64,000 nucleotides of DNA from a bacterium (GTDB lineage: Bacteria > Zhuqueibacterota > Zhuqueibacteria > Oceanimicrobiales > Oceanimicrobiaceae), in contig JBHIAC010000002.1 of the NCBI GenBank assembly GCA_046758365.1, positions 3,836 through 67,835 on the forward strand, in the 5' to 3' direction. Positions 1 through 16,041 of this stretch are shown here, piece by piece. The stretch's first letter is position 1; every line of letters starts with the position of its first letter. The position numbers and the translations under genes were made by a program. Under the pieces are notes generated by a model. That model made no database searches and was not told where the DNA came from. It saw only the letters and a program-made list of their open reading frames with translations.

Positions 1-1
1 A

Positions 2-1015
2 CCGTTAGTTAAAAGTATAATGCCTGAGGGGCAAATTACCTGGCAAATAAAAGCCCCTGATGATCCAACGACAATTTTGGACATAGTTGTTGAAGTGATA
101 GACCGAAATGCTGTTGATGAAAACACGAATCAATTGCCGCCTTTAACACCGACTCCACCTGAGATTGTAATCCCTGTTCAAACACAAGCTATTGGACTTA
201 ATTTGTCGTTATTAAATGATAGAAAACCAACCACGATTGTCCGTGGAGCAACTGACGTACCAATTTTTGGTTTAAAATTTGCAAATACCAGCGATGCAGA
301 CATAGTCATTGAAAATATTAATATGAACGTGAATGATAAAGAGGGAAATAGTATTTCACCCAATTCTGTAATTACACGATTAACTGTGGTAGATTATTTT
401 AATACTAGCGTAATTTTTAGAGAGCTCGTATCATTACCTGAGACTAATCCAATGGTACTTGATTTTAGTCCAGCGATTTCTATTCTGCCAAGCCAATCTC
501 AATCCATTGAGTTTCGGGTAGATATTGCCTCACAAACCGAAACCAATAATTTTCGATTATCCATTGATTCCCCTCAAGATGATATTTTAGCTAAAGATGT
601 GGGATCCGATAGTCTTGTCACCATCAGGGATGATTCATCTGGGTTAACTATTGTTAATGTTTTAACCCCGGGTTTTTCAGTTCTAATCGATCCAAATTTA
701 GAAGCGAGTTTTTTTAATTTTCCAAATCCTTTTGGACAGAACTCAAGAGATATTACAAAATTTAACTACAACCTTACTCAAGATTCTGATATAACAATTA
801 GAATTTATACCCTCTTAGGAGAGTTGGTTTGGTCTATTTCACACAGTGCAAGTGATCCAGAAGGCAGAGTAGGAACCCACGATGGTAAGCAGCAACCCAC
901 AATTGTGTGGGATGGTACTAATGATAAAGGTCAAAAAGTCCTGAACGGGGTTTATGTTGCTGTATTAACCACAAACGACGGGAAGGCTTTAACAAAAATT
1001 GCTTTAGCAAAATAA
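2..1015 (+). CDS. C-terminal part of a large secreted protein with a T9SS type-A/FlgD Ig-like C-terminal domain (5' truncated by window edge)
   Basis: Frame is open to the window start; beta-rich repeats; ends FFNFPNPF...ITIRIYTLLGELV...IVWDGTNDKGQKVLNGVY. Confidence 0.8.
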   Translation, partial: PLVKSIMPEGQITWQIKAPDDPTTILDIVVEVIDRNAVDENTNQLPPLTPTPPEIVIPVQTQAIGLNLSLLNDRKPTTIVRGATDVPIFGLKFANTSDADIVIENINMNVNDKEGNSISPNSVITRLTVVDYFNTSVIFRELVSLPETNPMVLDFSPAISILPSQSQSIEFRVDIASQTETNNFRLSIDSPQDDILAKDVGSDSLVTIRDDSSGLTIVNVLTPGFSVLIDPNLEASFFNFPNPFGQNSRDITKFNYNLTQDSDITIRIYTLLGELVWSISHSASDPEGRVGTHDGKQQPTIVWDGTNDKGQKVLNGVYVAVLTTNDGKALTKIALAK

Positions 1016-1019
1016 TTTT

Positions 1020-3083
1020 GTGAGAAAGATGATGTTAGATAAATTTTTATACAATTTCCTAAAAAGAACCTCAGGGGTGATATTTATTTTAATAATAATT
1101 CTATTCATTTATATACCTACTAACTCTTATGCTCAATCAGGTGTAGGGGGTACCAAGAGCACATTTTTAAGTGTAGGGGCACGAGCACTGGCTTTAGGTA
1201 ATGCTTATGTTGCTCTTTCTGAGGATCCGACGGCTGTTTTCTGGAATCCGGCTGGTCTTGACTATTTAGAGAAAAAAAGCACCAGCTTTTACTATACAAG
1301 TTTGATTGCGGGTTCAAATTTTAGTTTTGTAGGATTTGTGTATCCCACGGTATCTATTGGTAGTTTTGGTTTTGGCTGGTTGAGATTAGGGACCGGGGAT
1401 ATTGAAGAAAGAGGTTCAGACGCTGAACCTGGAGCTAATTTTGATTTCAGTCAACAGCAATTTCTCTTTTCGTATGCCAAGCAACTGAAAAAGAGTTTCA
1501 GCATTGGTCTTACTGTAAAAATTGAGAGTTTCAGTTTTTCTATACAAAACCTCTCAGATTCGGGGGTTGGGGCAGATTTAGGGTTATTATATCGACCAGA
1601 TTTTGATAGTGCAATTTTACGGGACCTTTCATTAGGAATAAATATTCAAAACATCATAAATCCGAAAACTCGGTTGGTGGATATGTCTGAATCATCCCCT
1701 ATAAATTTCAAAATTGGCTTGGCTAAACCAGTTCGATTTGGGGAAGCACGCAATGCATTTACATTGCTGTTTGATATAAATAAAAGCGAAAGTGCACCTA
1801 TGATGTATAACTTGGGGGGCGAGTACTCTTTTCATAATCAAGCCATGTTACGAATAGGGGTAAATGATGGCCAAATTGCATTTGGCGCCGGCGCAAGCTA
1901 TAGTAATTTTCACATCGATTATTCTTTTGGTAAACTGTTTGATGGACCGGATTTTTCTGCAAACCATCGTTTTTCTGTTACTATTGAATTTGGTAAAGGT
2001 AAAACAGAGTTAATCCGTATTGCTCGCGAACGACGTGAAAGAGAAATGCGGCTACAAGTTGAGAATCAGATGTGGTTTTCACGGGAAATTGAATTTAACA
2101 ATAGTATGGAAGAAGGACGCGATAAATATTTTAACGGAGACTACCTGGGTGCATATGTAGACTTCTCAAATGCTTTTGAAGCAGCTAATACTCTTGTGGA
2201 AGTGGCTATGAGGTTAAGAGGTGAAAATATTCAAGACGAAAAAGCCAACATACGAGTTGAAACAGCGAATTCTGCGTTACAAGAATCCCGGACCATGTTA
2301 GAACTTGCCGATGCAAAACGTGATTCTGTTCAGAAAGAAGAGCAGAAACAAATAGTTTTGCAGGCGAAAAAATCGGCTTTGGAACAAGAACTGCAGGACT
2401 TTATTCTAGAGCATCGACAAAAAGGCAATGCCTTTTTCAAGAATGGCGACTTCACTAGAGCTATTAGAGAATGGCAACTAGCTTTAAATAGAATTGCAGC
2501 AAATAAAAGTAATAACTTACCTAACTGGGTCGAAGATGTAAGGCTGCAGATTATAAATGATATTAATACCACCGAAAAGCAACTACAAGGCAACATTAAA
2601 GAAAAGATTAGACAAGCTGACGCCTTAGCACGGAGAGGCGATTACGTTCAAGCCTTGGCTGTGTTAAATGAGTTAAGAGGTGCAGAGTTATCAGAAGAGG
2701 AACGGAGTACTATTAGGAGTAAAATTACAAAAATACAAACACAACTTAATTTTCAACAAAATTATGAGCAGGGTATTCGCCATTATGCTAATAAAGAATA
2801 CAAAAAAGCCATGGAATATTTTGAAAGGGCGCTAAGAATCAAATCCAAAGACCCGAGAGCACGTAAGTTTTTTGAAGACGCCAAAGCCCGGGCCCAGGCC
2901 AAAATTCAGGAAATGCCCCCTGATATACAAGCAAAGTATGTCCGTGCGATTCAGCTCTATCGTCAAAAAATGTTTAAAGAAGCACTGGAAATATTAGAAC
3001 AAATCCGAGTAAAGCAACCGTATAATAAACGAATTTTGGATTTGATTGATCGAGCAAAAGATCGTTTAAAGGAAAATAGATAG
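1020..3083 (+). CDS. PorV/PorQ-family outer-membrane beta-barrel fused to a C-terminal coiled-coil/TPR region
   Basis: Signal peptide, then VGARALALGNAYVALSEDPTAVFWNPAGL (PorV/FadL-like N-terminal motif); barrel ends NHRFSVTIEFG; helical TPR-like repeats follow. Confidence 0.8.
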   Translation: MRKMMLDKFLYNFLKRTSGVIFILIIILFIYIPTNSYAQSGVGGTKSTFLSVGARALALGNAYVALSEDPTAVFWNPAGLDYLEKKSTSFYYTSLIAGSNFSFVGFVYPTVSIGSFGFGWLRLGTGDIEERGSDAEPGANFDFSQQQFLFSYAKQLKKSFSIGLTVKIESFSFSIQNLSDSGVGADLGLLYRPDFDSAILRDLSLGINIQNIINPKTRLVDMSESSPINFKIGLAKPVRFGEARNAFTLLFDINKSESAPMMYNLGGEYSFHNQAMLRIGVNDGQIAFGAGASYSNFHIDYSFGKLFDGPDFSANHRFSVTIEFGKGKTELIRIARERREREMRLQVENQMWFSREIEFNNSMEEGRDKYFNGDYLGAYVDFSNAFEAANTLVEVAMRLRGENIQDEKANIRVETANSALQESRTMLELADAKRDSVQKEEQKQIVLQAKKSALEQELQDFILEHRQKGNAFFKNGDFTRAIREWQLALNRIAANKSNNLPNWVEDVRLQIINDINTTEKQLQGNIKEKIRQADALARRGDYVQALAVLNELRGAELSEEERSTIRSKITKIQTQLNFQQNYEQGIRHYANKEYKKAMEYFERALRIKSKDPRARKFFEDAKARAQAKIQEMPPDIQAKYVRAIQLYRQKMFKEALEILEQIRVKQPYNKRILDLIDRAKDRLKENR

Positions 3084-3091
3084 GTATTACA

Positions 3092-6000
3092 TTGTTTAAA
3101 AGGGTAGAAAAAGAACAATTAAAAGTACCGGCCCATATTGATTATTTGGGCGACTTACGCGATTTTGTCACCCAGGTTGGTAAAAAATATAGATTTTCAG
3201 ATAAGCTCATTAATGCATTTAAATTAGCTATAGACGAAGCCGCCACTAACATCATACGGCATGCCTACCGAGAAAATAATGGCTTTATTACTGTGCGTTC
3301 TATTGTAAAAGAGAACAGTCTTACCATATCACTCATTGACCAGGGGACTTATTTTGATCCAAAACGAGTTAAAGAACCAGATCTGAGGCGTTATATTGAT
3401 ATTGGGAAAAAAGGGGGCTTGGGCATTTTCATAATGCGCAAGGTAATGGATGAAATTGACTATCGCAGAACCGAAGAAGGTAATGAACTGAGAATAACCA
3501 AATATCGAGAAACCCCACAAAAGAAAAAACTTTTTACCACTGTGTCCTCTATTCCTCTTTCTATCAAAGCTAAATATTTCTTTCGGACTATTGCTATAAT
3601 TACTCTAATGATTACGGTGGGTTATTTTTATTTTTACATCAAAACAGATGATTATGTCATTTCTGAGTTAATTATTTCCGGCCGAGCTACCTGCAGTCAA
3701 ATAATAAACCGCATTAGTTCAGCACCAACAGAAGAGTTGGTGTTTATCGAAGATATTGTTCATCCTTTATATGAAGAAAATAAAGATAAAATCTACCGTT
3801 TATCTGTTGAAGATAGTACAGGAATTATTGTTTACAGTTCAAATTTGTCTGAAATGTTAAGGCAATTTATCCGTCCCAGTAGAGTTGAATTAATTGAACC
3901 AGGAGTTTATAGGTATTACTTAGTTCAGGGAGTAAAAGTCTTTGAATTTGAATATCCAATCAAAATAAAGGATACTAACAAATATTATGGAAAGACTCAT
4001 GTATTCCTGTCAACAGAATCGGCAGATAAAGCCATAAGTGCCATACGTCTTAATGACTTAAAATTAGCCTTGTTTATTTTAGGTCTTAGTACTACCGGTG
4101 TAGCAGTGTTGATTTATCTAGTTATGATTCCTTTCAGTAAACTCGCTGATTGGGTCAAGGAATTGGGTCACGGAGAAATTGATGATGAAATTGATATTGA
4201 TGCTTCCACTGAAATTGGAGAAATTGCTCAGGCATTTAGTGATATTACCCAAAAGTTTCGAGAATCTCAAAAAAACTTAGCTGATCAGGAACGTCTTCAG
4301 AAAGAGATGCAGGTAGCTCAAGAAATTCAACAAACCCTGCTCCCTATGGAGTTTCCTGAATTGGAAGGATATGAAATTGCCTCCTATTATGAAGCTGCGA
4401 AAGAGGTAGGCGGTGATTATTATGATTTTGTCGAGGTAGATAAAGATTCTTTGGGTATAGCGGTGGCTGACGTTTCTGGAAAAGGCGTTCCTGGGTCTCT
4501 TGTAATGACCATGATTCGAACGGCTCTTCGAACAGAAGCTCGGGGGGTTAAAGATGCTGCCGAAGTACTTTCTCGGGTAAATACATTTGTCAGTGGAGAC
4601 ATCAAAAAGGGTATGTTTGTCACTATTTTCTATTTAATAATTGACTCCAAAAAACGTCGTCTAAATTACGCCAGCGCCGGACACAACCCTATGATTTTAT
4701 ATAGAGGGAGTACGAAGAAAACTTACTATCTGAATCCAAAAGGATTTCCTATTGGAATTCAATTACCTCAAAGAGATATATTTCGTAATTATATTGAATC
4801 AGATACGATTCAATTAGCTGAAGATGATATCCTTCTGGTTTATACCGATGGTATAACAGAAGCTATGAACTCTAGACGAGAGCTTTTGGGTGAAGAACGT
4901 TTACTCAAGATATTAAGGGAATTTGGACATCTCCCAGTAAATTCTTTTGTGGACAAGCTGAAAGAAGGGATTTATTCCTTCACAGAGGGGAGTCCGCAGT
5001 TTGATGACATTACCTTAGTAGCGATTAAAGAAAAATCATCTCGAGAAAAAGATGAACTCCGAAGAGCAAAAGAAGCGCACAAATTAATTGGTGAAGAAAT
5101 GAGTATTCGAGAGGCCTGTGAAACCGTCGGTATTACAACTTACGCCTATTATAATAAATACAAACGCATCTTCGAAGAAGAAGGCATTGAATCTTTTGAA
5201 ATTGACCCAGATGTATCCGTAGAAGCAAAGCATCTTAGTATTGAAGAAAAAACCAGAATATTTGATATTATTGCCAGCCATCCGGAATATGGAGCCAGTC
5301 GAATTAGCACGGAACTTAATACAGAGAAGTATGGTTTTACCCAAATTAGCGAAAGTAAAATATACGAAGAGTTGGTAAGAAATAGACTAAACACGCGTCA
5401 ACTTAGGGAGGCATTTGTTGAGAAAGGTAAAAGGGGTCGCAGAAGACTAAAGCCACCTGGAACACCTCTGTTAACTCTTGATGGTAAGTTAATAATAGAT
5501 CGACAATTGGATATTGCAGAAAACGAAGAAAAGTTCACACCTCAAAACATTAGACCAAATGAAAAAGAGGAAACAACCGAAGATCAGGAAGTAAAAACTG
5601 ATCAACGCATTGAGACAAGTCATAAAACATTTGAACCTTCAATCACAGAAGAGAAAATTGATGAAACATCTGTTACTAATATCACGGAGTCAGAGATAGA
5701 AGCAGAAGCTCTAATTGATTCTTCCATCGAGGAGATTTTATCGAAAGATTATATAGAAGAAACAGAAACCCAAGATAAAGCGCCAGAGATGAGTACCGAA
5801 ATCATTAAAGAAGAAAACCAGAAAGAAGTTAGAGAAATGGAAGATTCTCAAGATTTAATTGAAGAATTTGTTCCAGAAACTAATTTATCTGAAGCAATTT
5901 CCGACTTAGATGAAGAACAGAATATTCTTTCACAATTTGAAGAAGAGATTCCTGAAACTTCACAAAATGATGAAATATCATTTGAAGAGCTTTTTGAAAA

Positions 6001-6727
6001 TGTCGATTTTTCAAATGATACTCATGAAGATAAGCTAAATTCTTCAGATATTGAAGAGTTGGTAGATGAAGACCTATCGACTTCTTCCGTAGAAGAATTA
6101 CTTGCCCATGATTCGATTGAGGATTTCAGTGCTAATACCGATATTACTTCTGAAGAAATAATTAGTTCTAACGTTGATAATGATGCAGATGAATTCGAGG
6201 AAGATAGTGTCTCGTTTTCCGATTTGCTCAAAACTTTAGATGATGAGATGGTCTATTTTTCAAAACAGTATGAAAATAACCAAAGTCAATCAAAGGATTT
6301 ACAAACCGTAAAGCATGATTCAGAAACAGAAGAACCTACTCAAGAGTTTGATAAATCTAGTACTCATTTAAATAAAAAAGAAATGTTATTAATAAGTGGA
6401 ATCAAATACTATAAGAATAAAGATTATGAAAATGCTATAAAAGAGTTTAAAAAAGTTATTGATATTTATCCCGATTTTAAAGAGGCTTATAGTATATTAG
6501 GAAACGCCTATTTTAGAAATCAAATGTACACCGAAGCTGCTACGGCTTATGAGAGAGTGAAGCAAATGGATCCCAATGATATAACGGCTTATGAAAATAT
6601 GGGAGTCATTCATGCAAATCGAGGAGAATATACCCAAGCGATAGAAGAATGGAAAAAAGTTCTTGAATTAAATCCAGAAAGAACCGATATAAAGAAAAAG
6701 ATCAAAAAAGCTTTACAGAAGATGTAA
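3092..6727 (+). CDS. Multidomain partner-switching protein: RsbW-like HATPase, 2 TM with periplasmic loop, HAMP, SpoIIE/PP2C phosphatase, HTH region, acidic linker, TPR
   Basis: LAIDEAATNIIRHAY, DQG, KGGLGIFIMRKVMDE (RsbW-type kinase); VGGDYYD, ADVSGKG, SAGHNP, YTDGITEA, DDITLV (PP2C); C-terminal TPRs. Confidence 0.9.
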   Translation: MFKRVEKEQLKVPAHIDYLGDLRDFVTQVGKKYRFSDKLINAFKLAIDEAATNIIRHAYRENNGFITVRSIVKENSLTISLIDQGTYFDPKRVKEPDLRRYIDIGKKGGLGIFIMRKVMDEIDYRRTEEGNELRITKYRETPQKKKLFTTVSSIPLSIKAKYFFRTIAIITLMITVGYFYFYIKTDDYVISELIISGRATCSQIINRISSAPTEELVFIEDIVHPLYEENKDKIYRLSVEDSTGIIVYSSNLSEMLRQFIRPSRVELIEPGVYRYYLVQGVKVFEFEYPIKIKDTNKYYGKTHVFLSTESADKAISAIRLNDLKLALFILGLSTTGVAVLIYLVMIPFSKLADWVKELGHGEIDDEIDIDASTEIGEIAQAFSDITQKFRESQKNLADQERLQKEMQVAQEIQQTLLPMEFPELEGYEIASYYEAAKEVGGDYYDFVEVDKDSLGIAVADVSGKGVPGSLVMTMIRTALRTEARGVKDAAEVLSRVNTFVSGDIKKGMFVTIFYLIIDSKKRRLNYASAGHNPMILYRGSTKKTYYLNPKGFPIGIQLPQRDIFRNYIESDTIQLAEDDILLVYTDGITEAMNSRRELLGEERLLKILREFGHLPVNSFVDKLKEGIYSFTEGSPQFDDITLVAIKEKSSREKDELRRAKEAHKLIGEEMSIREACETVGITTYAYYNKYKRIFEEEGIESFEIDPDVSVEAKHLSIEEKTRIFDIIASHPEYGASRISTELNTEKYGFTQISESKIYEELVRNRLNTRQLREAFVEKGKRGRRRLKPPGTPLLTLDGKLIIDRQLDIAENEEKFTPQNIRPNEKEETTEDQEVKTDQRIETSHKTFEPSITEEKIDETSVTNITESEIEAEALIDSSIEEILSKDYIEETETQDKAPEMSTEIIKEENQKEVREMEDSQDLIEEFVPETNLSEAISDLDEEQNILSQFEEEIPETSQNDEISFEELFENVDFSNDTHEDKLNSSDIEELVDEDLSTSSVEELLAHDSIEDFSANTDITSEEIISSNVDNDADEFEEDSVSFSDLLKTLDDEMVYFSKQYENNQSQSKDLQTVKHDSETEEPTQEFDKSSTHLNKKEMLLISGIKYYKNKDYENAIKEFKKVIDIYPDFKEAYSILGNAYFRNQMYTEAATAYERVKQMDPNDITAYENMGVIHANRGEYTQAIEEWKKVLELNPERTDIKKKIKKALQKM

Positions 6728-6772
6728 TTGTAAATAATTTACAAATCAATCAGAATTTATAGTTTGTTTCTA

Positions 6773-6801
6773 TTGACTTTTAATCTTAATTCTATTATAT
6801 T
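6773..6801 (+). promoter_or_regulatory. Sigma70-type promoter of the STAS gene
   Basis: TTGACT-17 nt-TATATT, then AGGAG RBS before ATG 6851. Confidence 0.6.
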
Positions 6802-6850
6802 TAAAACTATTATGTTAGTAATAATAAAATAACTTTACTAGGAGTTTTCC

Positions 6851-7546
6851 ATGGAAGGTATACAAGTATCAGTAGAAAAAGCTGGCTCGAAACAGAACAT
6901 TGCTGTAATAAAAGTTGGTGGGTATATAGATACTACCACTTCGGCTGAACTTGAGCATTCTTTATCTTCTATTTTAAAATCTAATTGTTATAATATAATT
7001 ATTGATTTAGGTAATGTGGATTACATCAGCAGTGCGGGCTGGGGATTATTTATAAGTGAAATTAAGGGTATTCGTGAAAAAGGTGGCGACCTGAAGTTGG
7101 TGCGAATGATACCTGATGTTTATGAAGTATTTGAACTTTTGGAGTTCCACTACATTCTTAAAGCCTTTGATCGGTTGCAAGAAGCTATTAGTGATTTTGA
7201 TCTTGCTGCACCATCCGAGTTGCCGCTAAAATCCCGAATCGTCAACGATAATAGAAGTAAAAGGGATGTGCATGTAGTATCCAAGACTGAAACCAATGTT
7301 TTGCAGGCGGAAGCTGATAAAGAAGCCGCTTTAGAGTCTGAAATAGAAACGATAGAAGAAAAAATCCGTCAAATTGTTATAGAAAATCCTGAAGCGGGTA
7401 CTTTGCAAATTATAAAAACACTTAACAGTCCTCGATTTGGTAATATAAAACTTGGTTGGTTTGAAATGAGAAAATATCTAAAGCAATTAAATATAGATTC
7501 CAAAAAGAAAAGACTTGCTTATTTCAAACAAAAAACTTTTAGCTAA
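6851..7546 (+). CDS. STAS anti-anti-sigma factor (RsbV/SpoIIAA-like) with an extra C-terminal HTH-like domain
   Basis: GYIDTTTS, IDLGNVDYISSAGWG (phosphoacceptor Ser motif); about 110 aa extension. Confidence 0.9.
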   Translation: MEGIQVSVEKAGSKQNIAVIKVGGYIDTTTSAELEHSLSSILKSNCYNIIIDLGNVDYISSAGWGLFISEIKGIREKGGDLKLVRMIPDVYEVFELLEFHYILKAFDRLQEAISDFDLAAPSELPLKSRIVNDNRSKRDVHVVSKTETNVLQAEADKEAALESEIETIEEKIRQIVIENPEAGTLQIIKTLNSPRFGNIKLGWFEMRKYLKQLNIDSKKKRLAYFKQKTFS

Positions 7547-7700
7547 ATATTAACATAAAAATACATCGATAGTAGCCAGTATTATTTACCTGTAAGAACC
7601 TCCTTCCTCAAATCCGCATTTAGAAAAATAGTTTGATTTTACTCTCTTTTTTTCTTAATATTAGTTTCATCTGATAATTAGGTGTCGATTTTATGTATAA

Positions 7701-9822
<2,122 letters not shown>

Positions 9823-9843
9823 ATTGCTACCCTTAAAAAGCAG

Positions 9844-9872
9844 TTGATTTGTTATACAAATATTTGTATATT
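9844..9872 (+). promoter_or_regulatory. Sigma70-type promoter of the tRNA-Ser/gltX unit
   Basis: TTGATT-17 nt-TATATT, 20 nt upstream of tRNA-Ser. Confidence 0.6.
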
Positions 9873-9892
9873 TAGATTCATTTCTAAGCAGT

Positions 9893-9976
9893 GGAGGGCT
9901 ATGTCTAATTGGTAAGACAGCGGTCTTGAAAACCGCCGCCCGAAAGGGCTTGGGGGTTCGAGTCCCTCGCCCTCCG
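9893..9976 (+). tRNA. tRNA-Ser(TGA)
   Basis: Acceptor GGAGGGC/GCCCTCC; anticodon arm GCGGT-CTTGAAA-ACCGC; long variable arm GCCC-GAAA-GGGC; GGTTCGAGTCC. Confidence 0.95.
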
Positions 9977-10052
9977 CTTAGGATACAAGGGGATCTAATG
10001 AAATAAAAAAATAAAAATTCTAATTTTGGAATTAAATTTTGACTAATCTTTC

Positions 10053-10142
<90 letters not shown>

Positions 10143-10170
10143 TTTTTTGACCATTTATTGAAAAAAGCGT

Positions 10171-11649
10171 TTGGTATTTAACTTGGAACCTTCAAAAGTT
10201 GTAAAAGTTAGAGTTCGTTTTGCGCCAAGCCCTACTGGCTATTTACATGTGGGTAGTGCTCGGACAGCTATATTTAATTGGCTGTTTGCCCGAAAATATC
10301 ATGGAAAATTCCTGCTAAGAATCGAGGACACCGATGTAGCTCGTTCTGGTGAGGAGATGGTGCAAGCCATTTTCAATGGTCTTAGATGGTTGGGCTTGGA
10401 TTGGGATGAAGAGCCGGTATTTCAATCTGAGAGATTTCACGTCTATAAGCAATATGCCGAAAGGCTTGTTGAGGAAGGCAAAGCCTATCGGTGTTATTGT
10501 ACCCAGGAGAGATTGCAGGCAGTCAGAGAAAACGCTCTCCGAGAGAAAAAAGAGGTGAAATATGATCGCTACTGCCTGAATTTAACTGAGACTGAAAAAG
10601 CTGCCCACGAAAAAGAGGATGTGCCTTATGTCATAAGATTTAAGGTTGAAGACGGTTTTACATCATTTGTGGATGAAGTCTACGGCCAGTTAAGATTTGA
10701 CAATAATCAGATTGATGATTTCGTCATACTCCGTTCTGATGGGATTCCAACCTATCACTTAGCGGTGGTGGTGGATGATAAAGAAATGAACATCACCCAT
10801 ATTATCCGAGGGGATGACCATCTTACCAATACACCTAAGCAAGTTCTTTTATATAAAGCCTTTGGTTGGGAATGTCCCGTATTTTCTCATGTCCCTTTGA
10901 TTTTAGGTCCAGATCGACAGCGCTTGAGCAAACGACATGGTGCAACGTCTATCGAGGAATATGAAAAAGCTGGTTATTTGCCGGAAGCTGTATTAAATTT
11001 TTTGGCTCTCCTCGGTTGGTCATCTGGCGATGATAGGGAACTATTCACTCGAGATGAATTAATTGAAGCATTTGATCTTTCCGGAATATCTAAAAAGAGC
11101 GCCGTGTTTGATGAAAAGAAATTGGAATGGATGAACGGCCAGTATTTGAATAAAATAGATAACGAAGAGCTTCTGCAACGAGTACAGTTGTATTTGACGG
11201 ACGCTGGATTTATTACCCCCAATTTTGTAAGTGAGAATAAAGAGTACTTATTAAGAATTGTGGGACTTCTAAAAACCAGAATTAGACGATTGACTGAATT
11301 TTCTAAGCTCTCAAGATATTTTTTCACCGAACCTGAAGAATATGAAGAAGTCGGCGTTCAGAAACATTGGAAGGACCCGATGTTAATTGAACGATTTTAC
11401 TCACTAATTGATCGACTTGCTGAAATTCAAGAATTCTCACAAGGAAACATAGAAAAAGCAATTCGCAGTCTTGCTGAGCAGATGAATATCAGTGCTGCCA
11501 AGCTGATTCATCCCATGCGATTGGCTATTACTGGCTATTCAGCAAGTCCGGGGCTGTTTGAAATCATGGAAATATTGGGCCAGGAAACTGTTCTGCGCCG
11601 TTTACGAAAAGCCATCGAATATTTGAAGGGGAGTTCTTTAGCCCTTTAG
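10171..11649 (+). CDS. gltX: Glutamate--tRNA ligase
   Basis: RVRFAPSPTGYLHVG (HIGH), LRIEDTD, IRGDDH, RLSKRHG (KMSKS). Confidence 0.97.
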   Translation: MVFNLEPSKVVKVRVRFAPSPTGYLHVGSARTAIFNWLFARKYHGKFLLRIEDTDVARSGEEMVQAIFNGLRWLGLDWDEEPVFQSERFHVYKQYAERLVEEGKAYRCYCTQERLQAVRENALREKKEVKYDRYCLNLTETEKAAHEKEDVPYVIRFKVEDGFTSFVDEVYGQLRFDNNQIDDFVILRSDGIPTYHLAVVVDDKEMNITHIIRGDDHLTNTPKQVLLYKAFGWECPVFSHVPLILGPDRQRLSKRHGATSIEEYEKAGYLPEAVLNFLALLGWSSGDDRELFTRDELIEAFDLSGISKKSAVFDEKKLEWMNGQYLNKIDNEELLQRVQLYLTDAGFITPNFVSENKEYLLRIVGLLKTRIRRLTEFSKLSRYFFTEPEEYEEVGVQKHWKDPMLIERFYSLIDRLAEIQEFSQGNIEKAIRSLAEQMNISAAKLIHPMRLAITGYSASPGLFEIMEILGQETVLRRLRKAIEYLKGSSLAL

Positions 11650-11694
11650 CCACGCAAATTGGCTGGGGTAGACTTGTTAGGTGAAAAGGTCGCA

Positions 11695-11793
11695 TGGAGT
11701 TTTGGAGTATTGGATCAATGGAGTGATGAAATGATGAATATACTTTTTCATAAATTTGCATTACTCCAAATACTCCATTATTCAATTACTCAA
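11695..11793. repeat. Palindromic intergenic element built from 8-nt units (TGGAGTAT... / ...ATACTCCA)
   Basis: tggagttt-tggagtat-tggatcaa-tggagtga mirrored by ttactcca-aatactcca-ttattcaa-ttactcaa. Confidence 0.65.
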
Positions 11794-11867
11794 CCAGTAA
11801 TAAAGATAAAACACTTTGAGGAGAAAATAAAAATAGTTTATAGCAATTCTGAGGCATTTACAAAACT

Positions 11868-11938
11868 TGGGGTGTCGTTCAACGGCAGGACACACGGCTC
11901 TGGACCGTGGAATCGGGGTTCGAATCCCTGCACCCCAG
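11868..11938 (+). tRNA. tRNA-Gln(CTG)
   Basis: Acceptor TGGGGTG/CACCCCA; CACGG-CTCTGGA-CCGTG; GGTTCGAATCC. Confidence 0.96.
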
Positions 11939-11944
11939 CTACCC

Positions 11945-12018
11945 GCGCCCGTAGCTCAATTGGATAGAGCATCTGACTTCGGATCAGAGGGTTGAGGGTT
12001 CGAGTCCTTCCGGGCGTG
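11945..12018 (+). tRNA. tRNA-Arg(TCG)
   Basis: Acceptor GCGCCCG/CGGGCGT; TCTGA-CTTCGGA-TCAGA; GGTTCGAGTCC. Confidence 0.95.
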
Positions 12019-12039
12019 CTAAAAAAAATCAATAACATA

Positions 12040-12066
12040 GGCTCACTTGTATAGTGAGCTTTTTTA
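12040..12066 (+). terminator. Intrinsic terminator after the tRNA pair
   Basis: GCTCACT-TGTAT-AGTGAGC hairpin followed by a T run. Confidence 0.8.
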
Positions 12067-12114
12067 TTTTAAAATTGAAATGTTACCAAGATATTACCAT
12101 AAAGAGAATTTTTG

Positions 12115-12212
12115 CTTGACAAATTTGTAATAATTTGACATATTAAATTCGTTTCTGATTAAGGACAAAAAGTATGGATGATGAATCAGAGTTATCTTTC
12201 CTCTGACTTGAC
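12115..12212 (+). promoter_or_regulatory. Promoter plus leader hairpin upstream of the TIR-like gene (copy 1 of a repeated element)
   Basis: TTGACA-17 nt-CATATT, then TCAGAG...CTCTGA hairpin; homologous to 56156-56235 on the minus strand. Confidence 0.6.
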
Positions 12213-12245
12213 AAACGCTTCTCCATCTGCTTATATGGTCATAAT

Positions 12246-12752
12246 ATGAAAATTCCTGTTTTTGTTTCTTGCCCGACAACGCTTAACAGAGCGCAAGAAT
12301 CGGCTCGAAAAATTATTAATCAAGAGTTAGACCAGTTAGGTATCGAGCCTCGTGCATTGGGTCGAACCGATTATCCATCCGATTTCCCATTACGGGAAGT
12401 TTTAGTCATAGCAAAACATTGTTCTAGTGGAGTTATTCTTGGATTTACTCAGTTTTCTACTGATTCAGGAATATGGAAAGAAGGAACACCTGACGCAGAA
12501 CCAAATAATGAAACTTTAGCTTTTCCTACGTCTTGGAATCAGCTTGAAGCTGGAATCTTATTCTCGTTAGGCCTCCCTCTTCTGGTATTTAAGGAAGAAA
12601 ATATTTCAGGTGGCGCCTTTGACTCAGGAGTCACGGATGTTTTTATCCATAAAATGCCGATAGGAAGATTATCTGTTGAGAATAAAAAGGCATTACGAGA
12701 AGTATTTCTCAATTGGCAAAGAAAAGTCAGAGCTCATTATTATGGTGATTAG
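12246..12752 (+). CDS. TIR-like / nucleotide-hydrolase-fold protein, possible anti-phage component
   Basis: VFVS first strand, GVILGF strand, TSWNQLEAGILFSLGLPLLVF (W-x3-E catalytic-helix pattern). Confidence 0.55.
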   Translation: MKIPVFVSCPTTLNRAQESARKIINQELDQLGIEPRALGRTDYPSDFPLREVLVIAKHCSSGVILGFTQFSTDSGIWKEGTPDAEPNNETLAFPTSWNQLEAGILFSLGLPLLVFKEENISGGAFDSGVTDVFIHKMPIGRLSVENKKALREVFLNWQRKVRAHYYGD

Positions 12753-12924
12753 GGTAATAAAATTCCAGTGACTAATTTTGTGCCTTGCACTCCGAGACGC
12801 TAGAATACCTACTGCGGGAAAAGGCGGCACCGGTGAAAGCACGCAGTCCAAATTGATCGACCAGTCTGACACCTTAACCCAGAGACTCGAGTCACCAAAT
12901 TTTTCCAAACTTCTGAAATGAAAG

Positions 12925-13398
12925 ATGGCATTTAACAAATTTGAAGAATATAAATTCATAGCTTCAAGTAACCAGCACCTTTCAGAAAGACGTCAGGAGG
13001 CCACAAAGACCTATCTGAGTGTAAATACCGCTATTTTTGTGATTATAGCCTTTCTAATCAAAGACACACAACTTCAGGATTGGTGGTTAATAATTGCGCT
13101 TTTTCCTCTAACACTCACAGGTATTCTCTCGTGCTGGATTTGGAGCAAGATAATCACTCAATACAAAAAACTGATTGGTTGGCGTTACGATGAACTCATT
13201 AAAATTGAGGAAAGCATGAAGGAAGCTCACCATTTCTACAAAAAAGAAAAGGGACAGTTTTTTAAACAGCAGAACGGTAAGGAAAAGTTTGGCTTCTCAC
13301 GTCTGGAGGCATTACTCCCTACCATGTTCATGGCCTTGTACCTCATTTATTTTTTGGGGCTGTTATTTATAATAACATACAATCAATTTTGGAGGTAG
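12925..13398 (+). CDS. Small 3-TM membrane protein resembling the RipA/Rip1-type oligomeric pore family
   Basis: FEEYK...SERRQ.A...YLSVNTA, two TMs, W..II..YK.L......IE, third TM; pattern recalled, not searched. Confidence 0.55.
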   Translation: MAFNKFEEYKFIASSNQHLSERRQEATKTYLSVNTAIFVIIAFLIKDTQLQDWWLIIALFPLTLTGILSCWIWSKIITQYKKLIGWRYDELIKIEESMKEAHHFYKKEKGQFFKQQNGKEKFGFSRLEALLPTMFMALYLIYFLGLLFIITYNQFWR

Positions 13399-13401
13399 AA
13401 A

Positions 13402-16041
13402 TTGTCCGAAAATAAATTTCGAGTAAACTTGCGATTTGCCCAATTTGGGTCAAGCTTAAAATTCAAGGATATTATATCACTAACGTTCATTGGGTACAGT
13501 CTGGGATGGCTCCTTTCTTTTTACCTGGTTGCTTCATTTGTTCACCTTAATTTTGTAATATTGATTTTATTATTCCACGGATATTTCTGGTTTAAACTGG
13601 TTAACGAAATCCTACAAAAGATTGAGCCACCTGCTGAGCTCCTGCTTATTCTTTTTCTACTGATACACTTTGTCGACCTGGCTTTTTTGCGAATAGAGTT
13701 TGCCGCCTCGACATTTTGGAATCCTGTGATACAAATGCCCAGTTCGTTTTTAGGAATTCTGCAAATTATGGTATTGGCTTTATCAATTCTTATTTTCAGC
13801 TTGATTCTGGTAAAAAACAGCCAAGGTAAAAGAGGGGTCATTGTTTGGTATGTGTTGCTTGGTTTCATTGGAATCAACTTACTCAGGGCTGAAGACGATT
13901 CCTACCTTTTACTTTTTCAGTTTGTTTTATTTATTCTTCTTTTACGAAAAACCTCCTGGTTAGAAGAACTTACAAAATTAGAGTGCTGGACAGGTTTTCT
14001 GCTATTGTTTTTACTTTTTCAAGGAGTTTCTCTACTTGATCCATTTCAAGGTGCGAATACCAATCAGCTTGCTCAACAATTTATTTGGTACAGCGCACCT
14101 TTTTATATGTACTTATTATTCAAAATATATTTACTTGCGCTTCTCGTAAAAATTCCAGTAGTGCTTGTTTACAACCACGCACAGCTTTCGCGGAAATTAC
14201 GGATTTCCAGTCTTTTTCAATCCACATTTCCACAGGTCATTCATCTAATTATGTTGCTGATTATTTTTTACTTTTTCATTGCTGTTTGGCAGGCTGAAAA
14301 TGTGCGGCAGGCATTAATCAATCAGATAGAACAGGTAAAATCTGGCAAGGCGACCCCATCTCTTACCTATTTTAAAGGGGCTAAGACTTCTATTGGCTCT
14401 ACAATTTTTTACGGTTACCAACCGATAAACTTGTCAAATGAGTTGCCCCAGCAGGGAATTCTGGCTTTAGAGCGGGCCCCATCTGGGGAACTAGCCGATT
14501 ACAAGAATATAGATTATTTCTTCTTTTTCGATGCCGCTGAGGTTGCAGACGATTCAGTCTATTTTTTCAAGATAAATTCAAATTTCTTGGCGTCAGTGAC
14601 CGAAAATATGTCCGTATTAGCTGGCACCCAACTGCTATCTTATCCGTATTTGCTTGCCCAATGGGAGACTTTTATTTACAATAGAAAAATCTTGATGCAG
14701 GATAATGAAATTAGAATATTTCCGTTCAGCTTGACTCCTCAAAAGTCAGCAAATTTTATTTCAGTCGGAGTCGAGGCTGGCACAAAACCGCGTTATGCTT
14801 TTGAAGAACGGAGGATGCGACTGGAAGACGCTGAAATAAATTTCGGCAAATTGGATGAAAATAAGTTCACGGTTGGGAGAGTTTTAGTCCCGCTTTGGAA
14901 TGCGAATTTTGAGCATGTTGGTGATTTTGCTTTTGATGTCTTGCTGGTGCCGAGTTTATCTATTTTTAATTCGCTTCTATTTAGGTATATAGTGTTTTTT
15001 ATTATTGTTTACTTATTGGTAAATCTCTTTGTCGTCCGTCGAGCTGTAAAATTTGGCGCCCGGATTAATCGCAGGATTGTGCAGAAATTTAATCAACTCA
15101 AAGACGGTATTCGGGAAATATCATCTGGTAATCTGGATTATAAGGTCAAGCTCGAGGGCGAAGATGAATTTGTGGAATTGGCCGAAAGGTTCAATCAAAT
15201 GGGGGAAAAGCTAAAACAGACCATTGAGGAAGTTCGCGAAAAAGAACGCCTTGAACATGAATTAAATATTGCCCGTCAGGTTCAGCTCAGTTTACTTCCA
15301 AGTCATCTGCCCCAGGTACAAGGATATCAAGTTGCCGCTACCCTTAAAACGGCTACAGAGGTGGGAGGTGATTTTTACGATATTATACCTTTAAATAACA
15401 ACAAATTTCTATTCACGATTGGTGACGTTTCCGGGAAAAGTACGTCGGCCGCTTTTTATATGGCACAGTGCATAAGTCTCATTCGGTATTCTCCTCAATT
15501 TACCTATGAACCTCGTGAAATTATCCTGCGTTTGAATGAGTATTTTGCAGATCCGATGGTTGATCGCCAGATGTTTGTAACTGCAATTGTCGGCATGTTG
15601 GATGCAGCCAAAAGCACCATACGGTTAGTTAGAGCCGGGCACACTATGCCGATTCTCATCCCAGGACGAAAGAAAGAAGAAATTCGTGAATTACAGCCCG
15701 GTGGTCTGGGAATTGGTTTGGCAAGAAGCGGCCAAATGCTCGAAAAAGTTCTTAAAGTGGAGCAAGTTACCATTCGTTCCGGCGATATGGTGGTGTTATA
15801 TACCGATGGTGTGGTAGAGGCCGCACGCTCGTCTGCTGAAATAGATAGTAATAATGGCGAAGATGAGGAGACTAAGCAGTTTTACGGGGAGGAGCGGTTA
15901 ATGAATTTGCTGAAGGGAATCCGCGGAAAAAGCGCCACAAAAATCATGCAGGAGCTCACCAATGATTTGGAATCATTTTATGGAGGAAACGCGCCGGTGG
16001 ATGATTATACGTTGTTGATTATTCAGAAAACGAGCAGATGA
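13402..16041 (+). CDS. Polytopic membrane sensor with HAMP and SpoIIE/PP2C phosphatase
   Basis: Many N-terminal TMs; HAMP (GEDEFVELAERFNQM); VGGDFYD, GDVSGK, RAGH, YTDGVVEA, DDYTLL. Confidence 0.9.
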   Translation: MSENKFRVNLRFAQFGSSLKFKDIISLTFIGYSLGWLLSFYLVASFVHLNFVILILLFHGYFWFKLVNEILQKIEPPAELLLILFLLIHFVDLAFLRIEFAASTFWNPVIQMPSSFLGILQIMVLALSILIFSLILVKNSQGKRGVIVWYVLLGFIGINLLRAEDDSYLLLFQFVLFILLLRKTSWLEELTKLECWTGFLLLFLLFQGVSLLDPFQGANTNQLAQQFIWYSAPFYMYLLFKIYLLALLVKIPVVLVYNHAQLSRKLRISSLFQSTFPQVIHLIMLLIIFYFFIAVWQAENVRQALINQIEQVKSGKATPSLTYFKGAKTSIGSTIFYGYQPINLSNELPQQGILALERAPSGELADYKNIDYFFFFDAAEVADDSVYFFKINSNFLASVTENMSVLAGTQLLSYPYLLAQWETFIYNRKILMQDNEIRIFPFSLTPQKSANFISVGVEAGTKPRYAFEERRMRLEDAEINFGKLDENKFTVGRVLVPLWNANFEHVGDFAFDVLLVPSLSIFNSLLFRYIVFFIIVYLLVNLFVVRRAVKFGARINRRIVQKFNQLKDGIREISSGNLDYKVKLEGEDEFVELAERFNQMGEKLKQTIEEVREKERLEHELNIARQVQLSLLPSHLPQVQGYQVAATLKTATEVGGDFYDIIPLNNNKFLFTIGDVSGKSTSAAFYMAQCISLIRYSPQFTYEPREIILRLNEYFADPMVDRQMFVTAIVGMLDAAKSTIRLVRAGHTMPILIPGRKKEEIRELQPGGLGIGLARSGQMLEKVLKVEQVTIRSGDMVVLYTDGVVEAARSSAEIDSNNGEDEETKQFYGEERLMNLLKGIRGKSATKIMQELTNDLESFYGGNAPVDDYTLLIIQKTSR

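Follow-up and report, generated by a model that had tools for sequence, protein, structure and literature searches.

The subject of this study is a two-gene signaling module in a 64,000-nucleotide stretch of contig JBHIAC010000002.1 (assembly GCA_046758365.1), hereafter the window. The module consists of a gene for a 1211-amino-acid bifunctional sensor enzyme (3092..6727) and a gene for a 231-amino-acid STAS protein, STAS-1 (6851..7546). Judged from its sequence, the module appears to be a conserved partner switch without an adjacent sigma factor gene, shared by the Calditrichota/KSB1 lineage and neighboring candidate phyla. Both of its proteins are predicted to bear a transposase-type helix-turn-helix (HTH) module, with both halves in the enzyme and the second half only in STAS-1. 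Both fusions look ancient and inherited together, the domain apparently having passed vertically across phyla. Sigma-free, phosphorylation-controlled STAS modules for polysaccharide are already known (SypA and HenR/All4160); the HTH on both partners is what sets this module apart from them. A search of titles and abstract openings in the open-access literature, with subscription journals and supplements outside its reach, found no description of HTH-bearing partner-switch proteins.

The enzyme is encoded by an uninterrupted open reading frame (ORF) with the domain order kinase, transmembrane helix, sensor, transmembrane helix, HAMP, PP2C, HTH1, HTH2, acidic linker, and TPR; all features of the two genes lie on the forward strand. 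The whole bipartite HTH spans amino acids ~651–781. It begins with a leading helix and a first, HTH_28/HTH_23-like sub-domain (HTH1, amino acids 651–702, 5042..5197), delimited by AlphaFold2 helices 4–20, 25–32, and 36–50 of a 150-amino-acid model and by the Pfam matches of orthologs. The second, HTH_32/HTH_21-like sub-domain (HTH2, amino acids 714–781, 5231..5434) is identified by BLASTP, Pfam, hhalign, and AlphaFold2 as a paralog of the STAS-1 C-terminus, and is followed by a basic tail (amino acids 782–797, 5435..5482) with a K-PPG-P motif, corresponding to the invariant alignment columns K140, P142, G143, and P145. In STAS-1, a C-terminal, strongly basic four-helix domain similar to HTH2 (amino acids 166–231, 7346..7543) is recognized by BLASTP, hhalign, AlphaFold2, and charge, and the first sub-domain has no STAS counterpart.

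A preliminary description of this DNA had quoted peptides from 5099–5416 and 7349–7543 as paralogous parts of the two proteins. Both ORFs and peptides are found at these coordinates, as amino acids 670–775 of the enzyme and 167–231 of STAS-1, and the paralogy holds. BLASTP aligns the STAS-1 C-terminus with the second half of the enzyme segment at 25% identity over 80 amino acids (E = 2e-6), and the comparison of the two segments as profiles by hhalign gives a probability of 97.5% (E = 5.6e-12, 80 columns), with the STAS-1 C-terminus falling on the second sub-domain.

The assignment of both domains to the IS481 type, made in the same description, stands in part: a transposase-type HTH is recognizable on each protein, but IS481 is only the best match below threshold, and STAS-1 has the second sub-domain alone. 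The enzyme segment 5033–5500 matches positions 2–121 of the 284-position NCBIfam model for IS481 transposases with E = 5.2e-9 and 36 bits (cut-off 224), the Pfam family HTH_32 with E = 6.5e-5 and 23.8 bits (cut-off 33.7), and, also under the curated cut-offs, an IS3 NCBIfam model (E = 8.9e-8) and HTH_21 (E = 4.5e-3). Orthologous enzyme segments match HTH_32 in 21 of 30 cases at E ≤ 0.01, HTH_28 in 13, HTH_21 in eight, and HTH_23 in seven, and the C-termini of 22 orthologous STAS proteins match HTH_21 in three cases and HTH_Tnp_Tc3_2 in one. Relatives from other phyla exceed the Pfam cut-offs of HTH_28 and HTH_23; for instance, P0178 reaches 36.0 bits for HTH_28 (cut-off 25) and 29.3 bits for HTH_23. 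The relatives match HTH_28, HTH_23, HTH_29, and HTH_32, general families found in IS3, IS481, and IS630 transposases and also in many proteins other than transposases. The label IS481 fits the module best, at a sub-threshold score, and membership in that family is not established.

Predicted structures agree with the bipartite arrangement. The AlphaFold2 model of the enzyme segment consists of a leading helix with a three-helix unit, followed by a unit of four helices (pLDDT, the model's local confidence score, 79 overall and about 88–93 in the sub-domains); the STAS-1 model (pLDDT 75) has the same four-helix pattern at 168–229 as the second unit of the enzyme. The Atlas searches provided leads only. 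By structure, STAS-1 160–231 retrieved the enzyme family (TM-score 0.83) and then HTH_32/HTH_28 and rve-bearing or IS481-named clusters (0.69–0.77). The feature search with the enzyme HTH gave values of 0.88–0.90 to small HTH_23/28/29/32 clusters, and that with the STAS-1 C-terminus yielded nothing usable. Sequence-profile searches of the Protein Data Bank (PDB) with both segments produced chance-level matches only (an acetyltransferase, E = 0.051; the SYK kinase, E = 0.14). Two further invariant features were noted in the enzyme. The cysteine at amino acid 676, in the REAC motif of the first HTH (5117–5119), is invariant in 30 orthologs and in the four distant relatives aligned with them. The K-PPG-P motif is invariant in the 30 aligned class-level orthologs but cannot be made out in those four relatives.

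Each of the two domains was found in 41 of 41 relatives up to the class level, the enzyme HTH of the orthologs being 51–86% identical to that of the window (mean column identity 76%). Phylum-wide, 161 of 167 genomes possess the domain, including all 105 of high quality, and the six genomes without a match are 70–85% complete; leaving out G158 and G162, which are unpublished, gives 159 of 165 overall and 104 of 104 of high quality. Only 258 of 1.84 billion representative proteins matched in a profile search at E ≤ 1e-3. Among 150 listed matches, 45 of the more distant ones were chosen by hand and scanned, and they comprised 17 proteins with SpoIIE, four with STAS and without SpoIIE, seven tandem-HTH glycosyltransferases, 16 HTH-only proteins, and one uninformative sequence.

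In a scan of one genome per species, at least 587 relatives were confirmed among 600 candidate stretches, and the best 80 of them were surveyed as loci with hidden Markov models built from our own alignments of the domains. These 80 loci carry the labels Zixibacteria, Krumholzibacteriota, FCPU426, Eisenbacteria, KSB1, Calditrichota, and others. The HTH region is on the enzyme in all 80 loci, and a neighboring STAS-HTH2 gene is present in 48. At another 15 loci, the enzyme HTH is followed in the same protein by three STAS domains; two free, plain STAS genes without an HTH lie downstream at 12 of these, and in three the downstream DNA is out of view. Only a short STAS gene was found at ten loci, one of which (L120) ends at a contig edge, leaving nine. 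The last seven loci have no visible STAS ORF, three of them with less than 900 bases of room. Since the enzyme carries the HTH at 80 of the 80 best loci, as compared with 48 for the STAS neighbor, the enzyme-HTH fusion appears to be the constant feature and the STAS-HTH a frequent addition. Thus the fusion is not a one-off event but is conserved across the phylum and beyond.

Several unusual architectures were seen among the relatives. All-in-one proteins of ~1400–1500 amino acids have the order kinase-Cache-HAMP-PP2C-HTH-STAS-STAS-STAS, with two plain STAS genes ~2 kb downstream (L087–L101, L111, L114, and L146, in Krumholzibacteriota-labeled and unlabeled records). Some relatives have a second enzyme paralog of ~1640–1990 amino acids with the order kinase-HAMP-PP2C-HTH-linker-TPR and no adjacent STAS gene (L067 6203–12172 in genome G005; similar frames in G001, G009, G011, G004, and G017); none was seen in the genome of the window. 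Two metagenomic proteins of 383–386 amino acids (P0231 and P0214) combine STAS with two HTH2-like copies, which are set apart by an extended stretch that is charged and coiled-coil-like; the second of the copies resembles the enzyme type. Finally, tandem HTH_28/HTH_32 modules occur on family-2 glycosyltransferases (P0203, P0220, P0226, P0235, P0240, P0244, and P0253), another non-transposase use of such domains. The latter were considered as partners of the module and dropped: their labels are Patescibacteria/Microgenomates (three) and Bathyarchaeia (one), and none is present in the genome of the window.

When the HTH2 segments were placed in a quickly computed tree (130 rows, 69 columns), one branch, with a support of 88 in the SH-like approximate likelihood ratio test (SH-aLRT), separated the copies from enzymes (80) and those from STAS proteins (50), and comparable lineage groups came up on either side of it. 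A better-supported branch (95) puts five STAS copies of the Eisenbacteria type on its enzyme side. The data are compatible with one ancient HTH2 duplication, a tree of this kind and length being unable to decide between one and two.

The copies also differ in charge. In the lineage of the window, HTH2 of the STAS proteins has a median net charge of +8 and an isoelectric point of 10.2 (22 sequences), and the basic tail behind the enzyme HTH has a net charge of +7 over model positions 121–141. Across phyla, the enzyme HTH2 is itself basic where STAS lacks an HTH (+8 at 15 fused loci, +6 at nine loci with a short STAS) and close to neutral (+3, with a core of 0) at the 48 loci whose STAS bears a basic copy (+8). 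This pattern hints at a polyanion-binding role that may have been handed to the STAS copy after duplication.

It is extremely improbable that the HTH segments were left behind by a recently inserted IS481/IS3 element, arose through faulty assembly or gene calling, or belong to contaminant DNA within the bin. Transposase models are indeed the best named matches for the enzyme HTH, and the contamination of the bin is estimated at 8.17%. However, the conservation data refute such an origin: the reading frame is unbroken across 1211 amino acids, HTH orthologs at 51–86% identity are found in all the class-level relatives and the domain in nearly all genomes of the phylum, synteny is kept in six of six distant genomes, and a search of the window's own genome found the domain only in three partner-switch proteins, namely the enzyme, STAS-1, and a second STAS-HTH paralog, STAS-2. 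Both the DDE core and insertion sequence ends had been reported as missing, and we agree. The Pfam scan detected no DDE/rve domain in either protein of the module, nor was rve matched at E ≤ 1e-4 in any of the 45 distant profile matches scanned. No inverted repeats bracket the HTH, the 13 pairs seen all being 14–27 nucleotides long, 70–86% complementary, and in AT-rich DNA. Descent of the module from a transposase, as in the earlier proposal of a domesticated module, we only infer, because rve is absent from those 45 distant matches.

The remaining domains of the enzyme suggest its function. The N-terminal RsbW/SpoIIAB-type serine kinase domain (HATPase_c_2, amino acids 13–137, 3128..3502; E = 1.9e-26), overlooked in the preliminary description, scores 93 bits against a cut-off of 27.4 and is aligned over profile positions 2–127 of 127; it matches the NCBIfam RsbW models with E = 2.8e-24, under the equivalog cut-off. 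Two hydrophobic helices (amino acids ~163–183 and ~324–348, 3578..4135), read by eye from the translation without a transmembrane predictor, enclose a presumed extracytoplasmic sensor region of ~140 amino acids, and the equivalent region of relatives matches sCache_3_2 in Pfam. The HAMP domain (amino acids 347–382, 4130..4237) is weak, with E = 2.2e-4 and 21.9 bits against a cut-off of 25, which relatives exceed. It is followed by a PP2C serine phosphatase of the SpoIIE family (amino acids 451–646, 4442..5029; E = 2e-49, 168.6 bits, cut-off 25), whose metal-binding and catalytic aspartate motifs GGDYYDF, ADVSGKG, YTDG, and DDIT are present in the translation and invariant in the enzyme alignment. 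Behind the HTH region and its basic tail lies a long acidic, low-complexity linker of ~290 amino acids (~798–1090, 5483..6361), which has the lowest GC content of the region and zero Pfam family matches. The protein ends with three TPR repeats (amino acids 1095–1205, 6374..6706; TPR_2, E = 5.1e-20).

In STAS-1, the STAS domain (amino acids 14–112, 6890..7186; E = 7.5e-18, 64.7 bits, cut-off 22.6) does not reach the NCBIfam SpoIIAA equivalog cut-off; S60 and S61 of its phosphorylation loop are invariant in 40 aligned sequences. A disordered linker (amino acids 120–165, 7208..7345; AlphaFold2 pLDDT below 50), poorly conserved and without a consensus in the alignment, connects it to the C-terminal HTH2. 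A candidate sigma-70-like promoter for the STAS gene (TTGACT, 17 nucleotides, TATATT; 6773..6801) matches the consensus at ten of 12 positions, the seven promoter-like sites of the region being no excess over shuffled sequences (5.7 ± 2.2). A similar TTGAC/TATATT pair is visible by eye in the matching intergenic gap of other genomes.

Because the aspartate motifs of PP2C are invariant, the kinase profile is matched in full, and the two adjacent serines of STAS are invariant, the enzyme is taken to phosphorylate and dephosphorylate its STAS partner. By analogy with SypE and SypA, it is quite likely that the enzyme answers to an envelope signal by setting the phosphorylation state of one or more STAS proteins. 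SypE is described as carrying a serine kinase at its N-terminus, a receiver in its center, and a phosphatase at its C-terminus, and as controlling the STAS protein SypA via a conserved serine (PMC10120452, PMC8256260). By architecture, SypE/SypA of Vibrio (Aliivibrio) fischeri is the closest functional analog: both systems combine an N-terminal RsbW-type kinase and a C-terminal PP2C in one protein with a STAS serine as the target (a predicted one in the present module), have no sigma factor as known output, and can be connected with a polysaccharide locus, here through STAS-2, which precedes Wza and Wzc. Unlike the soluble SypE with its receiver, the enzyme has a transmembrane helix, sensor, transmembrane helix, and HAMP between its two catalytic domains, so that these hold the central position of the receiver, and then the HTH pair, acidic linker, and TPRs; a Pfam scan of the enzyme at E ≤ 1 gave no Response_reg match. 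SypA is a STAS-only protein of 105 amino acids, whereas both STAS proteins described here carry an extra HTH2 domain, and STAS-1 adjoins the enzyme.

The HATPase_c_2, SpoIIE/PP2C, and STAS modules, all over the Pfam cut-offs, are those of RsbW/RsbU/RsbV and SpoIIAB/SpoIIE/SpoIIAA of Bacillus; in contrast to these systems, a single protein unites kinase and phosphatase, a sigma factor gene is missing from the neighborhood, and an HTH is present on both partners. The pair had originally been compared with RsbU, RsbV, and RsbW; the enzyme has an RsbW-type kinase of its own and is more than an RsbU-type phosphatase, so the bifunctional SypE is the nearer model. Rv1364c of Mycobacterium tuberculosis combines phosphatase, kinase, and STAS in one polypeptide, as do the enzyme-HTH-3xSTAS forms of the 15 loci mentioned above; to our knowledge, its domain order is different and it has no HTH. 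The N-terminal region of IS481/IS3 transposases (HTH_28/HTH_23 followed by HTH_32/HTH_21) has two HTH sub-domains in the order predicted for the enzyme. Nevertheless, the module is not an IS481 transposase: it has neither DDE/rve nor convincing terminal repeats, is not multicopy, and falls far below the IS481 model cut-off. In Anabaena, STAS phosphorylation by the HenR/All4160 system is reported to control polysaccharide layer formation without a sigma factor; its kinase and phosphatase are separate proteins, and the accessible part of the preprint mentions no HTH (10.64898/2026.04.08.717354).

The link to polysaccharide comes from STAS-2, a protein of 236 amino acids with a conserved Ser-Ser loop, encoded on contig C1 of the same genome (locus L072, 5013–5720). 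Its gene follows a glycogen synthase gene and stands ahead of Wza-like, Wzc-like, epimerase, and WbaP-like genes (L072 5782–11362). The order and sizes of STAS-2, Wza, Wzc, epimerase, and WbaP are kept in seven of seven genomes, with Pfam run on the own-genome locus only. About 70 bp before STAS-2, an element TGGCAT-N5-TTGT (C1:45812 and C1:45942 region; L072 about 4812–4960) resembles the -24/-12 consensus of sigma-54 promoters. A further element, TGTTTCA-N7-GAACAATGTTTC, lies ~130 bp upstream of this sigma-54-like site and is unique in the genome by pattern search. Elements like both of these can be made out upstream of most of the seven orthologs.

We propose an explanation of the module that we regard as the best overall, its chances of being right and wrong being about balanced. 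An envelope signal would act on the membrane kinase/phosphatase to alter the phosphorylation of the STAS serine. With the STAS domain free, HTH2 would bind nucleic acid, the likeliest target being the promoters of genes for the envelope or exopolysaccharide; with STAS held by the kinase domain or phosphorylated, HTH2 would be silenced. The STAS protein would then be the regulator itself, and a sigma factor would not be needed. In lineages without STAS-HTH, the basic HTH2 of the enzyme could take the output part, perhaps sequestered by the kinase domain of its own chain and released by STAS. We favor nucleic acid binding by the STAS HTH2, gated by STAS phosphorylation, as the output because this copy is strongly basic, charge being the one observation that discriminates between the readings; its probability falls in our estimate slightly short of an even chance. 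Tentative, and one step less probable, is the fuller scenario in which STAS is a phosphorylation-gated DNA-binding regulator whose HTH was copied from an enzyme module older than the split of several FCB-group candidate phyla, the binding role having moved to STAS, which would now control envelope and exopolysaccharide genes directly. Partner switches outside Firmicutes often have no known output; SypA is an example (PMC10120452). Here a candidate output domain sits in both partners and is conserved across candidate phyla that are almost unstudied experimentally. It offers a clear example of a transposase-type HTH module with a long history in signaling, and it may let the switch work without a sigma factor, if the HTH reading is true.

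A number of observations weigh against this explanation. Nucleic acid binding by the HTH domains is something that we infer, and the domains themselves are recognized at a distance: every HTH match of the window's own enzyme lies under the curated cut-offs, and the STAS-1 C-terminus by itself has zero Pfam or NCBIfam family matches at E ≤ 0.1. Foldseek against the PDB gave no match at E ≤ 1e-3, the top one being the bipartite DNA-binding domain of Tc3 transposase (E = 1.1). The wide VIA fold search gave no Z ≥ 8; its best matches are mostly DNA-binding three-helix and winged-helix domains, and the highest Z of 6.1 is in a range that the tool calls common for helical arrangements. The enzyme is anchored in the membrane, which is unusual for a DNA binder, as are its non-basic HTH cores, HTH1 and HTH2 being acidic to neutral in the lineage of the window (-1 and -1.5, respectively). 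The charge comparison is drawn from few, related lineages, which are not independent samples, and since the STAS domain has a net charge of -9.5, the basic HTH2 could equally bind it or the acidic linker of the enzyme. A DNA motif common to the STAS-1 and STAS-2 upstream regions was looked for and not found; the sole conserved upstream element seen is that at STAS-2, and it may belong to a sigma-54 activator. Further, the SypE/SypA analogy does not itself predict DNA binding, SypA acting below transcription according to PMC10120452.

The domains might instead serve for docking, with the paralogous HTH2 domains, or STAS HTH2 together with the acidic linker or TPRs, tethering the substrate to the kinase/phosphatase. 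Nucleic acid binding would then have been lost, and the STAS domain would exert the output by acting on another protein, which is what has been proposed for SypA. That the two paralogous copies are inherited jointly and differ in the sign of their charge in the lineage of the window fits such a tether, and the fusion of three STAS domains behind the enzyme HTH at 15 of the 80 best loci, where the free STAS lacks an HTH, may replace it. In addition, SypA is considered to act on a protein (PMC10120452). On the other hand, the neighbor of the HTH-bearing enzyme is a plain short STAS at nine loci, so the enzyme HTH cannot exist solely to dock STAS-HTH; another four loci have no STAS gene within reach, the first HTH sub-domain is unmatched in STAS, and the STAS domain already has a textbook docking site on the kinase domain. 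We consider docking unlikely, if still a serious competitor. Less probable again is a switch in cis, where the bipartite HTH of the enzyme would be a sequestered effector in place of a sigma factor, held by the enzyme's own RsbW-type domain until unphosphorylated STAS displaces it, and STAS HTH2 would be a later modulator or competitor. It would account for the universality of the enzyme HTH among the best loci, not shared by STAS-HTH, for the absence of an adjacent sigma factor gene, and for the basic enzyme HTH2 in lineages without STAS-HTH. Yet it invokes a purely conjectural contact between the kinase domain and the HTH, needs DNA binding by a membrane-anchored protein, and has to reckon with enzyme HTH cores that are not basic in the lineage of the window.

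The genomic context of the module is also conserved. The order of a ~1150-amino-acid protein, a ~650-amino-acid TPR protein, the enzyme, and STAS-HTH is kept in six of six distant genomes. As had been observed for the immediate neighborhood, no sigma factor gene is adjacent: there is none among the genes of window positions 1–16041, the part searched for sigma factors in this genome. The obg, dprA, tRNA, and gltX genes lie downstream of STAS-1.

Upstream of the enzyme, the C-terminal part of the ~1150-amino-acid protein (2–1015, forward strand) has weak matches resembling sorting domains of the type IX secretion system (T9SS). The next gene (1020–3083, forward strand) encodes a 687-amino-acid protein with a weak PorV/UPF0164-like N-terminus and TPRs; the gaps between these two genes and between the latter and the enzyme gene are four and eight bases, respectively. 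Further downstream, tRNA-Ser (tga), tRNA-Ser (gct), tRNA-Gln (ctg), and tRNA-Arg (tcg) flank gltX (9893–12019). Finally, a second PP2C phosphatase of 879 amino acids (13402–16041, forward strand), which is without a kinase domain or HTH, has many hydrophobic segments, a HAMP domain (45 bits), and SpoIIE (120.8 bits).

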